DNA of 64,000 nucleotides from an uncultured Poribacteria bacterium (GTDB lineage Bacteria > Poribacteria > WGA-4E > WGA-3G), in contig OX638351.1 in NCBI GenBank assembly GCA_951813565.1, forward strand, positions 2,464,001 through 2,528,000, given 5' to 3'. Shown here piece after piece: positions 9,344 to 63,990 of the stretch. The notes under the pieces are model-generated. The model was not told the DNA's origin, did no database searches, and worked only from the letters and a program-made list of their open reading frames with translations. Position numbers and translations under genes: made by a program. Each line of letters opens with the position of its first letter. Position 1 is the first letter of the stretch.

Positions 9344-9681
9344 ATGCAAAATAGCGATTCCGAACTGATTCATCGGACATTAGACGGTGATCAAACGGCA
9401 TTTACTGCTCTCGTTGAAAAATACCAAAAGGGAATTCACGCGCTTGCGTGGCGTAAAATTGGAGATTTTCACATCGCGCAAGAAATTACGCAAGATGCTT
9501 TATCTCAGAGCATATGAAAGGCTCAGAACTTTGAAAGACCACAGCTTGTTCCCGGGATGGGTATATGTGATTGCGTCTCACCTATGCACAGAATGGCATC
9601 GGAAGAAGAAGCTTCTAATCCAATCTTTAGAAACTACTGACGTGGCGGAGATTGATCAAGTGTCATATTCACAATATATAG
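9344..9681 (+). pseudogene. ECF sigma-70 factor, frameshifted (about 9502) and truncated by IS5
   Basis: SDSELI..GDQTAF.LVEKY..EITQDA, then shifted frame LRAYERL..FPGWVYVIA; sequence ends at IS left end. Confidence 0.85.
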
Positions 9682-10558
9682 TACAGCGTATCTCATAAAT
9701 AGCAAAAAACATTAGATTGTCTTTTAATTATGGATCATTTCTGTTAAACTATTGTCCAGTATATATAATAGTTAGGAGATGATTTGAATGGAACTGAGTG
9801 ATAAAGAGTGGCAAATCTTGGAACCGCTGATGCCAGCACTTTCAACTGGACAAAAGGGGAGGCCCTGGCGTGAGAACCGAGAAGTGTTAGATGGCATACT
9901 CTGGGTGTTGCGGACAGGGGCACCTTGGCGGGATTTACCGAAGAAGTATCCGCCGTATCAAACGTGTCATCGTCGTTTTCAACAATGGTCTTCGGATGGC
10001 ACACTTAAAAAGGTGGGCACAACGATCACAGAAAAACTTGAGAAACGCCGTCACCTGAATATGAGTGAATGCAGCATTAATGCGAAGTTCGTTGCAGCAA
10101 AAAAAGGGTTTGTGTGTAGGAAAGACGAAGTGTGGCAAAGGGACAAAACTGGTAGCGATTACAGATAAGCGTGGCAGACCTGTGAGTGTTTTGATTGCGA
10201 GTGCCTCCTGCCATGAAGTCCGTTTGGTTGAACCGGCATTGGATGCGTGTTGGACTTCAGAACCGCCAGGAGTGTTGATAGGAGACAAAGCCTATGACTC
10301 GGATCCTTTAGATGCGTCTTTGCGGTGTCGTGGCACTGAAATGATAGCGCCCCATAAAAAGAATCGGAAGCGTCCTGCTACACAGGATGGTCGTCTACGC
10401 CGGTATAAACGCCGTTTCAAAGTGGAGCGTTTTTTCAGTTGGTGTGAAGACTTTCGGCGTTTGGTAGTGCGTTGGGAATATCATGCTGAAAACTATTTAG
10501 GGTTTGTGCTTCTGGCATGTCTACGGATGTTAATGAGGTATTTATGAGATACGCTGTA
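9682..10558 (+). mobile_element. IS5 family (IS427-like) IS, copy 1, with two-ORF transposase (9788..10168 / 10065..10547, A7GGG slip site)
   Basis: 20-bp perfect IR TACAGCGTATCTCATAAATA / TATTTATGAGATACGCTGTA including TA; ILWVLRTGAPWRDLP, GDKAYDS, VERFF motifs. Confidence 0.92.
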
Positions 10559-17023: not shown

Positions 17024-17362
17024 ATGCGTAACACACAACTGAGAGAATTAGAATTCTACAGAACTCAAAATGGCAGAGAACCTTTCACTGAATGGTTTGA
17101 ATCAATCCGAGATAAAAATGTACTTAACAGAATTGAACGAAGAATTAACCGACTTGAAAGTGGTAATTTGGGTGACTGTAGTCCTGTTGGCGAAGGCGTT
17201 TTTGAACTACGACTCCACTTCGGTCCCGGTTATCGCATCTATTTTGGAGAAGTTGCAAACACGGTAATTGTCCTACTTTGTGGTGGTGATAAATCGTCAC
17301 AGCAGCGTGACATTGAACGCGCAAAAACTTACTGGTTAGAATATAAGGGAACACAACGATGA
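17024..17362 (+). CDS. Type II TA toxin, RelE/ParE-like addiction module killer protein
   Basis: GNLGD..VGEGVFELRLHFGPGYRIYF..LLCGGDKSSQ..DI. Confidence 0.9.
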   Translation: MRNTQLRELEFYRTQNGREPFTEWFESIRDKNVLNRIERRINRLESGNLGDCSPVGEGVFELRLHFGPGYRIYFGEVANTVIVLLCGGDKSSQQRDIERAKTYWLEYKGTQR

Positions 17363-17682
17363 GAAAATTTCGAAAATGGCACGATTATCTAATTGAACGT
17401 CTTGCCGCAAACAAAGAAGAGGCAATTGGTTATCTTGATGTAGCGTTGGAAGAATATCAAGAAGATGGTGATACATCCTTCTTTCTAAAAGGTGTTAGAA
17501 ATGTAGTAGAAGCGCAGGGTGGTGTTTCCGAGCTTGCCAAGAAGACGAAGATGTCTCCAGATGCCTTGCAAAAGATACTCTCAAGTGATAAGGCACCGCA
17601 TGTTGACAAGTTCGGAACCATTCTGAATGCACTCGGATGTCGATTGTCTGTTGTGCCGTTAGAAAACGAACATCCTTCATAA
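17359..17682 (+). CDS. Addiction module antidote protein (HTH antitoxin)
   Basis: ATGA overlap with toxin; YL..ALEE, AQGGVSELAKKT, ILNALG. Confidence 0.88.
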   Translation: MRKFRKWHDYLIERLAANKEEAIGYLDVALEEYQEDGDTSFFLKGVRNVVEAQGGVSELAKKTKMSPDALQKILSSDKAPHVDKFGTILNALGCRLSVVPLENEHPS

Positions 17683-17736
17683 AAAATTGTAGATGAAAAT
17701 TAGGAAGCGCTTGGGGTTGATTACGACGAAAAACTG

Positions 17737-17801
17737 ATGCATAACACACAACCGAGAGAACTACAGTTCTACCGGACTCCAAACGGTCAGGTGCCTTTTA
17801 C
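17737..17801 (+). pseudogene. Second RelE-like toxin, 5' end only, cut by IS5 copy 2
   Basis: MHNTQPRELQFYRTPNGQVPFT vs MRNTQLRELEFYRTQNGREPFT of the upstream toxin. Confidence 0.85.
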
Positions 17802-18678
17802 TACAGCGTATCTCATAAATAGCAAAAAACATTAGATTGTCTTTTAATTATGGATCATTTCTGTTAAACTATTGTCCAGTATATATAATAGTTAGGAGAT
17901 GATTTGAATGGAACTGAGTGATAAAGCGTGGCAAATCTTGGAACCGCTGATGCCAGCACTTTCAACTGGACAAAAGGGGAGGCCCTGGCGTGAGAACCGA
18001 GAAGTGTTAGATGGCATACTCTGGGTGTTGCGGACAGGGGCACCTTGGCGGGATTTACCGAAGAAGTATCCGCCGTATCAAACGTGTCATCGTCGTTTTC
18101 AACAATGGTCTTCGGATGGCACACTTAAAAAGGTGGGCACAACGATCACAGAAAAACTTGAGAAACGCCGTCACCTGAATATGAGTGAATGCAGCATTAA
18201 TGCGAAGTTCGTTGCAGCAAAAAAAGGGTTTGTGTGTAGGAAAGACGAAGTGTGGCAAAGGGACAAAACTGGTAGCGATTACAGATAAGCGTGGCAGACC
18301 TGTGAGTGTTTTGATTGCGAGTGCCTCCTGCCATGAAGTCCGTTTGGTTGAACCGGCATTGGATGCGTGTTGGACTTCAGAACCGCCAGGAGTGTTGATA
18401 GGAGACAAAGCCTATGACTCGGATCCTTTAGATGTGTCTTTGCGGTGTCGTGGCACTGAAATGATAGCACCCCATAAAAAGAATCGGAAGCGTCCTGCTA
18501 CACAGGATGGTCGTCTACGCCGGTATAAACGCCGTTTCAAAGTGGAGCGTTTTTTCAGTTGGTGTGAAGACTTTCGGCGTTTGGTAGTGCGTTGGGAATA
18601 TCATGCTGAAAACTATTTAGGGTTTGTGCTTCTGGCATGTCTACGGATGTTAATGAGGTATTTATGAGATACGCTGTA
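17802..18678 (+). mobile_element. IS5 family (IS427-like) IS, copy 2
   Basis: Same IRs and ORFs (17908..18288, 18185..18667) as copy 1. Confidence 0.92.
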
Positions 18679-19849: not shown

Positions 19850-20044
19850 CTTGTGCCTCCTCATTATTTGAGTAGGTTAATTGTTTTGACAGACTACAGA
19901 AATAGGTGGGGAATGCCTAAAGACGAATGCGCTTGGTAGAATACGCTTTTGGTATTCTACATGATTCGCCATGATTCATACCGTTGATTAGGTATCTATA
20001 AGTTTTAACTATCCCTGTAGAGGTCGCTGGTCTCTAAAGTAACA

Positions 20045-27150: not shown

Positions 27151-27411
27151 GAGGGGTGTGCATAAATATTTGGCGCATCAACACAGACAGGGACAGACGC
27201 CAGGTGCCGCTTGATTTATAGAAATGCGTTTGTAGTCGCGCAATTCATTACCAAATCAACGCAGCATGCGCCAAATCAACGGTCCGAATACCTTATGGCA
27301 TTCCCCGTGTGGCATGCTGCGCCTCTTTGAACTTGTGGACGGAAACCCACGGCGTGTGCGGACTACCTTTAAGCGCATATTTAACATCGAAATTATTTAT
27401 GCACACCTCTC
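27151..27411. mobile_element. 261-bp MITE with 8-bp target duplication; ends resemble the 10761 IS
   Basis: IR GAGGGGTGTGCATAAATA / TATTTATGCACACCTCTC; AAGTAAAT on both sides; internal REP. Confidence 0.8.
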
Positions 27412-30061: not shown

Positions 30062-30293
30062 TGATGTGTCTCACCGAATACGTTAAGCTTTTGATGTTTA
30101 GAGTATATCACACATAGTTGTTGCAGGCAACTTGGGTAATAGGTTGGGTGTGTAAAGTTTTTGTAGAAATCCGCACAACTCCTATTGTAGGGGCGGGTCT
30201 CCGGGGAATGCCAAAAGGCATTCGGACCGTTGATTTGGTGCCTGCCCGTTGCATGGCACGTCCTGCGCAGTGGCGGGGCACAGGGACCCCGCC

Positions 30294-30460
30294 CATAGGC
30301 GTCAATTTCAGCACACAATCACCAGATTGCCTCTTGTGGGAGGGCTTTATAAGCCCGATTTATATGTATTTATCGGGGTTGAAAACCCGCAGCATGCCAA
30401 ACGCGCATGCTGCGTTGATTCACTCCCACAAGAGGGTATATCCTTAAATTGACGGCTATG
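30294..30460. mobile_element. MITE (CATAGGCGTCAATTT ends) inside a REP, flanked by a 19-bp duplication
   Basis: GGGCACAGGGACCCCGCCC at 30276-30294 and 30461-30479. Confidence 0.8.
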
Positions 30461-30612
30461 GGGCACAGGGACCCCGCCCTACAGTGGAAAACGCCGCGTA
30501 ATCATTGCAAATTGAACCTATGTAACCAAATATTTACACACCCAGAGAGACTTTTCAACTTGAAAGGTTTTAAGGGGTGTGATAGAATAGTGTAAAAAAA
30601 AGGAGGTTTGCA

Positions 30613-36440: not shown

Positions 36441-36600
36441 GTAGTCGTGCAATTCATTGCGAAACTTTCTTGTAGGAGGGGTTTTCAACTCCGCAGCGTG
36501 CCACACGCGCACGCTGTGTTGATTTGGACAAATGCCATACGGTATGAGGCGTTGATTTCGATACAATCACTACATCGGGCTTGCAAAGCCCTCCCACAAG
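36441..36600. repeat. REP cluster with two tandem AATCAAC-hairpin inserts (36494-36560)
   Basis: GTAGTCGTGCAATTCATTGCG, GTAGGAGGGGTTTTCAACTCCG, TCGGGCTTGCAAAGCCCTCCCAC. Confidence 0.75.
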
Positions 36601-44171: not shown

Positions 44172-44642
44172 AATATTCTCCTTTATAGAGTTATAGTTCT
44201 ATCTACATGCGATCGGCGCGCAGAGGGTAGCAGATATGCAATAGTTAAAAACAATTTTAGTGAGATTAAGAAACCCTGTCTTATCATATCTATTATTAAT
44301 TTGATGCAGTGCAGCACAGTTGGTTTTCACGATTCTTGCCCCATTATTTATAGTGGATTTTACAATAAACTGGACATCTGAGCTGTGAATCAACGCCAAT
44401 GCGCGTTTGGCGAGAGGGAACTCCGATTCCCGACTAACAATGGTTTCGTCGCGATTCGGAGATCGCTCCTACAGAATATATGAACTTATTTACATAATTT
44501 CCTATAACTAACATTCTGGAAACTTTTCGGGTCATTCTTTAGTTTTTCATATTTGCCATCTGTTAACCTTCAAATGTAATATTATAATACCATGAATGTC
44601 AAAGAAATGGTAGTTTTGTAATTCTCGCTCTTTTCCCATAAT

Positions 44643-45584
44643 TCAGCTGTCCTTTACAATCAAAAGTTCATGTGACTGCTTGACATGTCCTATTCCATTT
44701 TCAATCCGATTCTTACCGATACGGGTTTCGCCTTGTCCTAATGTGTACTGCCATTGCACCTCAAGAATCCTGAAGTCAGCGTACCACTGCCGAATAGTTT
44801 GGCAATCATTGTAAGAAAGGACGAAGCCTCCTTTGTGATTGTGAAGTAGGTCGCGCAGTAATTCGTGGTTAAAGCCTTTATGGTGGACAGGAAAATTCCG
44901 TTGCGGATAGATACCACGGAACATTTCTCCCTGATCAAGATAATAGGGAGGGTCGCAATACAGAAAGTCATCTGAATGGACTGGAAGAGTCTCCTCAAAT
45001 CTACCGGCATGAACGGCCAAGTTAGGACATCTGAAATTACGTACAGTCTGCAACGTCCGAATGTATCTCTCAGGAGATTCATAAATCTTTGACATCCAAC
45101 CGAGAAAACCGGGCCCATAAGATAGATTGTGATTAAACCAGTAATGCGCTGCCAATTCCAAAGGATCAGAAATGAATGTTTCGCTATTCCAGTGTGCTTT
45201 GAGGCGAGTCTTAACCTCTGCATATTGTGCTTTTGTAGGTTGCCACTGTTCAAGCTGTTCAGTAAGCGCACTGCCTAACGAAAGTTGGACCTGCCAATAG
45301 TTTACGAGAATATCAAAGATGTCATAAGCCCGAACCTGCATACCAAGTTCTTTGGCACATGCAATTTCAACTGCCCCGCCTCCCATGAACGGTGATACGA
45401 GTTTTTCTAACCCATCAGGAAGTTGCTCTACTATATGTCCAACTCCGAGACTTTTCCCGCCAGCATATCGTAGTGGGAGACCTCTATAACGTGCATATTT
45501 GTACTTACCTTGACTTCTGAGAGCATCTAAAAATAAAACTTTTAAGGATGCCCCAAAAAGATCAGAATCGGTTTGAACGATCAT
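44643..45584 (-). CDS. Orphan DNA adenine methyltransferase (Dam/D12 class)
   Basis: LRYAGGKS, SPFMGGG, YCDPPY, LSYND; no adjacent endonuclease. Confidence 0.88.
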   Translation of the reverse strand: MIVQTDSDLFGASLKVLFLDALRSQGKYKYARYRGLPLRYAGGKSLGVGHIVEQLPDGLEKLVSPFMGGGAVEIACAKELGMQVRAYDIFDILVNYWQVQLSLGSALTEQLEQWQPTKAQYAEVKTRLKAHWNSETFISDPLELAAHYWFNHNLSYGPGFLGWMSKIYESPERYIRTLQTVRNFRCPNLAVHAGRFEETLPVHSDDFLYCDPPYYLDQGEMFRGIYPQRNFPVHHKGFNHELLRDLLHNHKGGFVLSYNDCQTIRQWYADFRILEVQWQYTLGQGETRIGKNRIENGIGHVKQSHELLIVKDS

Positions 45585-45747
45585 AATATCTGAGTTGAAA
45601 TTATGAGAGAAGGTAAATTTGATACATTTGGTTCGGAGGGTTTCGAATTTACTATGTGAATGTAAGAGGCGCAATGAATCGCGCGACTACAAACGGCGTA
45701 ACTCCAAATATTGACCATTATTTCTTTGCTTCACTATAAAATAACTT

Positions 45748-63687: not shown

Positions 63688-63990
63688 CATAAATGTAAAC
63701 TTAAGAAAACAATGCTGGCTTATCTCTTGTGGGAGGGCTTTCTAAGCCCGATTTTGTGAGACTCAAGTTTTTAAATCCAAATCAACGGTATGAATTCCAT
63801 TTAGGCATTCCCCGTATGGCATTCATCCAAATCAACGCAGCATGCGCGTTTGGCATGCTGCCAAATCAACGCCAAATGCGCTTTTTGGCATTTGGCGGGT
63901 TTTCAACCCGATAAATACATATAAATCGGGCTTATAAAGCCCTCCCACAAGAGGCAATCTGGTAATTGTGTGCTTAAATTGACGCCTATG
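63688..63990. mobile_element. Third MITE of the CATAGGCGTCAATTT family containing an AATCAAC-hairpin array
   Basis: 63896-63990 is the near reverse complement of 30294-30389; right end CTTAAATTGACGCCTATG; degenerate left end at 63688. Confidence 0.7.

Follow-up and report, generated by a model that had tools for sequence, protein, structure and literature searches.

The window analysed here is a 64,000-nucleotide stretch of the genome of an uncultured Poribacteria bacterium, a sponge symbiont, in which the leader CCAAATCAAC occurs three times close to the right end, at 63777, 63827 and 63861. The question raised by this locus is whether such leader-headed hairpins are mobile DNAs of their own and, if so, by which route they enter their sites. 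An earlier note, made from the letters alone, had read the locus as three units, each composed of a constant 10-nt head and a different hairpin, added before a fixed CG. The three leader positions were confirmed, whereas the unit boundaries had to be corrected, and the locus is now divided as follows:

63724..63777, plus strand: left host repeat arm ending at an AAATC^ insertion site
63778..63813, plus strand: class B unit of 36 nt, CA-AATCAAC leader and basal-bulge hairpin
63814..63827, plus strand: orphan right half (loop remnant and right arm) of a class A unit
63828..63861, plus strand: class A unit of 34 nt with a GCAGCATGC stem
63862..63896, plus strand: class A unit of 35 nt with a GCCAAATGC stem, at the C^G made by the last C of the previous unit
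63897..63954, plus strand: right host MITE arm (GGGTTTTCAACCC ... CCCTCCCACAAGAGG)

The base following the last unit is a G at 63897. Of the three hairpins announced, the second and third stand out against shuffled sequences (z -2.45 and -3.59), whereas the first 50-nt block of the array, made up of the class B unit and the orphan class A half, folds no better than shuffles (z -1.22). The class B unit at 63778-63813 would at first have sat inside the loop of a class A unit; the left half of the latter was probably lost by leader-to-leader slippage, as suggested by intact nested copies at the same host site.

In the whole genome, 883 units with known arms are distributed over 444 loci. The unit is made of a 9-nt leader, NN-AATCAAC, and a bulged hairpin of 25-27 nt closed by G...C, and 604 of 611 simple units are 34-36 nt long. 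The constant part is AATCAAC rather than a 10-nt head, the two preceding bases being variable (CA, TG, CG, GG, TA or AG). Exact copies of CCAAATCAAC number 562 against 100 expected under an order-6 Markov model, and the next base is G after 519 of them. Within the window, 7 exact matches are found, and 14 with at most one mismatch against 7.2 expected, a count reached by 0 of 100 shuffles. In a structure-based genome-wide scan for AATCAAC followed by a stem-loop, as the earlier note had suggested, a closed hairpin follows 311 of 2358 AATCAAC sites, as against 1-8 sites for each of five control heptamers.

Two classes of hairpin are distinguished. Class A combines a stem of 9 bp with a bulged G, a C-G pair and a loop of 4-5 nt; among 81 distinct stems, positions 1, 3, 4, 5 and 8 switch between Watson-Crick pairs through compensatory changes, and position 2 is often a C-T mismatch. 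Class B carries a basal bulge, and about 120 class B units include a leader duplication (CAAATCAAG-AAATCAAC), once triplicated, that looks like slippage. The two classes use different sites. Indeed, when units were sorted as class B or not class B, copies not being independent, 89 of 92 units nested in a class A loop were class B, as against 0 of 171 units added after a unit end. A third form, a leaderless hairpin followed by ATGATT, is present in 95 copies, mostly nested, and also in 9 of 18 relatives of the genus; it shows recursive nesting inside units, and two stand-alone copies are perfectly palindromic. Leaders and left arms have a common NNAAT form, and no covariation was detected within units between leader bases and their own arm bases. 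Nested copies gave no match pattern that would indicate a class B 5' arm copying the target loop (GTAT/GTCC), and copies of the leader-hairpin-inverted-leader type number only 7.

Units lie between genes, as had been claimed: only 7 of the 883 known-arm units fall inside ORFs of at least 150 aa, two of them lacking the hairpin, although such ORFs cover 78% of the genome. Their neighbouring genes are unrelated housekeeping or metabolic genes. Thirteen leaders have no nearby closing arm; none of these was seen to open a gene-bearing element, and by eye they resemble decayed or deleted copies. An Rfam scan of the window returned only RNase P at gathering score, with no match to the unit. The RNase P RNA (RF00010; 45743-46085, minus strand) stands beside a gene for a D12-class adenine methyltransferase (44643-45674). 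Genome-wide, CTAG is almost absent (observed/expected 0.04), and GGCC and TCGA reach 0.26 and 0.43.

A census of the window gave 11 leader-headed units instead of the approximately 13 announced at seven loci, and every locus named does bear a unit. Those outside the 63777 array are the following:

30389..30422, minus strand: single class A unit with a TG leader, at a G^G site of the same MITE family as 63897-63954
30203..30237, minus strand: class B unit at a GGCAC site, in a GTAG-tagged REP loop
27252..27320, plus strand: class A unit in a GTAGTCGCGC-type REP, its loop holding a class B unit (27272-27306)
36493..36559, minus strand: two decayed tandem units (36527-36559 and 36493-36526)
44386..44411, plus strand: truncated unit with a TG leader replacing the GTAG tag of a REP
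19908..19991, minus strand: 84-nt class B composite with two nested leaderless hairpins, ATGATT-tailed form

The 63777 array and the unit near 30390 had been presented as a filled/empty pair. The pair is not a clean one, the left flanks being different host repeats, and true pairs are found elsewhere in the MITE family. In 16 of its 19 genomic copies, the left host repeat (63724-63777) continues into a GGGGTTGAAAACCC-type hairpin, 7 of them without a unit; two of the other three, including the present copy, run into the MITE arm, and one showed no clear continuation. The right host MITE family counts 24 copies, namely 4 empty, 1 with a single unit, 17 with 2-4 units and 2 chimeric, and all of its units (0-4 per copy) sit at one GGGAG^GGG site. 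Because its left flank belongs to another host repeat, the 63777 array is most simply understood as a recombinant joined within a shared unit, and the unit at 63828-63861 is the likely crossover point between the two host families. Among 29 loci fetched from relatives, 18 have both flanking genes adjacent, and no leader is found in the gap sequences covered (12 gaps whole, 6 in part); such a gap is not an empty allele at the level of the unit, because the whole host composite is missing. Just beyond the window end (L027:1640-2052) lies the 3' part of a gene pair, presumably carrying a PIN-like motif. The pair is whole in G002, G012 and G048; here it is devoid of its 5' part, and the repeat composite stands at the break.

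Filled and empty sites were then compared across the genome. A family was kept when at least four empty copies and a majority allele supported it, which reduced 225 sites to 48 families, the 'empty' allele being the commonest paralogous sequence, not the true ancestor, and families and contexts not being independent. The insertion is precise in 23 of the 48 families (19 at C^G, 4 at G^G), and precise empty alleles occur at at least 12 unrelated host sites whose flanks share no homology. In 17 of the 25 imprecise families, a G takes the place of the base preceding the target G, and up to 5 (mostly 0-2) further bases are lost. At 30203-30237, most empties read AG where the filled site reads GG, and the same junction of TAG to unit is seen in several REP families that are unrelated to one another. 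Thus, the target cannot be described as a fixed CG, since many sites are G^G or have lost bases; because of this junction pattern, the closing C must be regarded as the unit's own, with the G often travelling with the unit. As had been noted, there is no obvious target duplication: at most one base is shared at the junctions, without direct repeats or TIRs around the unit, and the ends are asymmetric.

The variable leader bases are linked to the base upstream. A CA leader is found in 16 of the 19 precise families at C^G and, across contexts, after C in 36 of 46 against 24 of 100 (p 7e-10), and TG or CG leaders are found after G in 29 of 46 against 13 of 100 (p 2e-9). The same coupling was obtained in relatives (CA, 15/17 against 8/39; TG/CG, 20/27 against 3/29). 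The link is partly circular wherever the leader bases might themselves belong to the target. The first leader base is identical to the first target base left unexplained in 12 of 24 imprecise families, a marginal and post hoc result (permutation p 0.034), and 7 of the 23 families with a CA leader are imprecise and show no match on the left.

In 64 simple arrays, the first leader is mixed, whereas all 98 later leaders are CA, as expected if arrays grow at the C^G regenerated at the 3' end, and 77 of 98 neighbouring units differ in their arms. The view of a very small non-autonomous unit building repeat/variable arrays is thereby upheld. Nested composites of 57-150 nt are found at several different host sites and, therefore, the ends rather than the length would define the moving DNA. 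Alternating dimers and leader duplications show slippage. Growth of arrays, nesting and later recombination of units are all observed. Most hosts are repeated, since a unique left 16-mer was found for only 216 of 965 candidates. The statement that units lie mostly in REP palindromes stands insofar as these host repeats are REP-like by eye, but a crude test revealed no palindrome excess at rebuilt sites (16/129 against 10.9% of non-ORF CG sites). The orientation of units relative to the lagging-strand template of replication gave 465/883 (p 0.12), GC skew giving no clear origin and a TnpB control being equally unbiased.

Empty alleles exist as paralogous families, but no presence/absence difference of a unit between strains was seen in the assembled contigs of four runs, which break at repeats and whose joints are confounded by other copies; stretches that no contig covers carry no information. 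The decayed pair at 36493-36559 is spanned without gap by one contig in each of the four runs. Substitutions between runs are seen at 36550-36560, in the decayed unit and its leader (C>T and T>C in X4 and X9, G>A in X4). At both edges of 30146-30543, the contigs of X4 and X9 run on into other sequence, which hints that the populations concerned lack this composite or have it in a different form.

Outside the source genome, in which it reaches 477 copies, the 18-nt pattern of the unit was found in all 37 other genomes of the genus, with 1-369 copies. It was detected in 45 of 60 genomes of the sister genus, with at most 19 copies, and in 7 of 47 genomes of other families, once each, which corresponds to background. 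Among the matches listed in a GTDB-wide scan, 78 of 80 titled records are Ca. Poribacteria. Sixteen viral matches in IMG/VR, all lacking the closing arm or hairpin, were judged to be chance. Different genomes fill different hosts with units. Altogether, the unit is a non-coding, non-autonomous mobile micro-element which, with high confidence, has moved among many host sites at some time.

How it moved is a more delicate matter. The reading preferred here, to which a probability of roughly 40% is given, is that short single-stranded donors are copied in under a microhomology clamp. This process would be a copy-in rather than a cut-and-paste. The donor would be a short ssDNA running from the leader to the hairpin foot, plus one flanking base at either end, and it would be captured where intergenic DNA, folded or repeated, is nicked. 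Its right end would be clamped by G(G) and its left end by the pre-leader base, often together with the first leader base, each clamp involving 1-2 matching bases. Adjacent matches would lead to a precise insertion, at C^G with CA donors and at G^G with TG or CG donors, and non-adjacent matches would cause the loss of the target bases between them, such as the A of a GTAG tag. As a fresh C^G would arise at the 3' end of each insertion, and a further one in its loop, arrays and nests would grow, and recombination between units would then shuffle arrays among host repeats, as at 63777. Some imprecise junctions may reflect rare precursors or result from later mutation, and the preference of each hairpin class for its sites lies outside what this model explains.

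No gene tested as a driver follows the unit: across the genomes searched, none of the Y1, RT, Cas1 and IS110 genes tracks it, nor do TnpB/IscB ends. IS110 had no match in the source genome, where the control worked; a Y2 profile likewise had no match, and its control had none anywhere. Three unit-rich single-contig relatives have no enzyme class in common among Y1, RVT_1 and Cas1, since G017 (246 leaders) and G021 are without RVT_1 and Cas1 matches and G023 is without RVT_1 and Y1 matches. Despite this present-day absence, such enzymes may have acted in the past, and divergent RTs or HUH proteins can escape profile searches. For the copy-in, a host repair protein or a family not yet recognised is a likelier nicking and copying enzyme than the products of the Y1, RT and Cas1 genes tested. 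Two further candidates were rejected. Integron attC sites are known for an AAC-hairpin-G motif that the unit recalls, but most copies have no GTT after the hairpin. A serine-recombinase route (IS607-type elements are present) was discarded by reasoning, a 34-bp double-stranded circle being implausible.

The earlier note had suggested HUH Y1 enzymes (RAYT or TnpA) acting in trans. These would cut and join single-stranded units, perhaps making one junction precise and leaving the other to repair. In its favour, the bulged hairpin with a 5' tag resembles REP anatomy (as set out in the available text of PMC8266576), the host repeats frequently carry a GTAG tag, AG/CT stands at the junction of many imprecise sites, and the right junction shows great regularity. 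The source genome has 10 Y1 matches, and its three RAYT genes of one clade all have a unit or remnant within about 200 nt upstream. Stem mismatches also show a weak excess tolerated on the bottom strand (39 against 21, p 0.027; not significant in relatives), which fits a single-stranded substrate. However, none of the 17 RAYT loci of relatives of the genus has a unit within 350 nt, and the presence of these genes fails to track that of the unit: Y1 genes occur in 42 of 47 other-family genomes, which lack the unit, and were not found in the unit-bearing G023, G001 and G010, and the RAYT clade occurs in 11 of 16 other-family genomes and was not found in G014, G023 and G001. Moreover, no GTAG stands at the 5' foot of the unit hairpin, which is preceded by AATCAAC, and no conserved tetranucleotide, nor any 4-5-nt target, lies 5' of either junction, only one base being common to targets. 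AG/CT is found at the junction of 78 of 150 imprecise sites, many of them poorly supported, but at 0 of 28 precise sites and in no precise family. The IS605 ends of the genome obey the IS200/605 guide rule taken from the accessible part of PMC5934647 (AAAC-TTAG 21/22, AAAT-TTAA 5/5, GAAT-TCAA 8), whereas the unit ends break it, as they do the GTAG/CT rule. The ends of resident IS200/605 elements (25 TnpB loci, 5 TnpA loci) do not match the unit, and a single hairpin could hardly serve the canonical two-ended TnpA reaction. This driver thus remains unproven and is considered doubtful. TnpB-domain matches number 51 genome-wide, with several guide/target pairs. Two similar ORF sets lie at 9387-10547 and 17359-18667 of the window, the second being an IS5-type split transposase (DUF4096 and DDE_Tnp_1).

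That few insertions ever took place, units being ancient REP or MITE modules that were carried along by their hosts and rearranged through recombination, gene conversion and slippage, is unlikely. Host amplification does provide much of the copy number, as in the 24-copy MITE, the 63777 locus is chimeric, dimers and duplicated leaders attest to slippage, and the 36493-36559 pair is fixed in 4/4 runs. Such a history would explain the shuffling of arrays but not the first entry into a site, and it is at odds with precise empty alleles at unrelated host sites, with hosts filled differently between genomes and with copy numbers ranging from 1 to 477 within one genus. Retro-mobility, in which a small RNA would be reverse-transcribed at a nick, as is said to occur for Nostoc SDRs, appears quite unlikely. 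Target-primed copying of retroelements leaves one precise and one variable junction, and such an outcome would suit the junctions of the unit, the 1-2-base priming and the mobile composites. The genome has an RT beside Cas1 and a Drt4-like RT, but RVT_1 has no match in 14 of 24 genus genomes, including the single-contig G017, G005, G021 and G023. Besides, orientation relative to transcription is without clear bias (42 sense, 60 antisense), G-U-type pairs are not favoured on the leader-first strand, and none of 125 CRISPR spacers, those of the RT-Cas1 array included, is unit-like. An off-target Cas1-Cas2 integration is largely refuted and highly improbable. It was attractive for the agreement between unit length and that of spacers (34-41 nt), but units show no repeat-length duplication, composites far above spacer length move, and Cas1 was not found in 8 of 24 genus genomes, including G017, G021, G006 and G016, while being present in 11 of 16 genomes of other families.

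The loci concerned are as follows. An RT gene and a cas1 gene lie beside an array of 54 repeats of 37 nt (G000:C1:3989138-3996000; L011, L013, L244), and a 511-aa RT is encoded at L012:1066-2601, its best PADLOC match being Drt4 (E 9e-157). Elsewhere (G000:C1:2828445-2831810; L024), an RRXRR-domain ORF, a 519-aa open frame matching PF14239, adjoins a CRISPR array of 26 repeats of 30 nt; we take it to be a CRISPR-associated IscB-like locus.

Compared with known systems, the unit belongs to none of the GTAG REP, IS200/IS605 and MITE families. It shares with GTAG/CGTC REPs, BIMEs and REPINs, as far as the available text of PMC3733652, PMC3116915 and PMC8266576 describes them, an intergenic hairpin of 20-40 nt, an unpaired end tag, an irregular stem and hundreds of copies; CGTC REPs are presented in these same sources as having no dedicated transposase, like the unit. 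Unlike REPs and their RAYTs, the unit has AATCAAC as its tag (7-9 nt), moves singly, both into REPs and into other copies of the unit, does not flank RAYT genes across the genus and has precise junctions at C^G or G^G, not CT or CA. With the ends of IS200/IS605 elements and their non-autonomous derivatives (portions of PMC5934647), it has in common a hairpin near a short motif and the absence of target duplication, but it has a single hairpin in place of two ends, lacks a conserved tetranucleotide in the target 5' of the insertion and departs from the guide rule, and target bases are often lost. Like MITEs (in the accessible text of PMC3184786), it is non-autonomous and has filled and empty sites, but it is 3-5 times smaller, lacks TIRs and direct repeats, and here MITEs are its hosts.

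The closest known system is that of the small dispersed repeats of Nostocaceae (SDR1-8). Elhai et al. in 2008 reportedly described them as 21-27 nt long, self-nesting and subject to compensatory changes, with no enzyme identified. What defines that kind of repeat is also found in the unit, namely a structure kept by compensatory changes and a precise insertion into repeats and into itself, with empty alleles. Being compared by description, the two differ in that the unit is 34-36 nt long against the 21-27 nt reported for SDRs, bears a fixed AATCAAC tag, belongs to a different phylum, uses many host sites and not HIP1, couples its leader to the target and forms tandem arrays. A literature search retrieved no description of the unit, and the SDR report may already cover such junction rules. 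SDR5 is stated to insert at a fixed point of HIP1 in the available part of PMC4390886, and Nostocaceae SDRs are also treated in PMC5861425, while the SDR report is cited in PMC3116915. On the evidence of these partial sources, both are very small, structured, lineage-restricted and precisely inserted into other repeats.

How DNAs of less than 40 nt move has been a standing question since the SDR report. With its hundreds of copies, its dozens of filled/empty families, its two structural classes using different sites and its explicit junction rule, the unit leads rival mechanisms to different predictions. Should a host enzyme or a new one write in short hairpin oligonucleotides guided by 1-2 bases, genomes would have a new route by which to change, perhaps usable as a minimal insertion tool. 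The unit could be the substrate of such an undescribed route, in which a 34-36-nt ssDNA would pick its site by its own end bases and be written in by a host or unrecognised enzyme, a proposal that is possible but rather speculative. Were it true, ordered arrays would be built without Cas1 or any known transposase, and the same route may also move the SDRs of Nostocaceae and other ultra-small hairpins across phyla.
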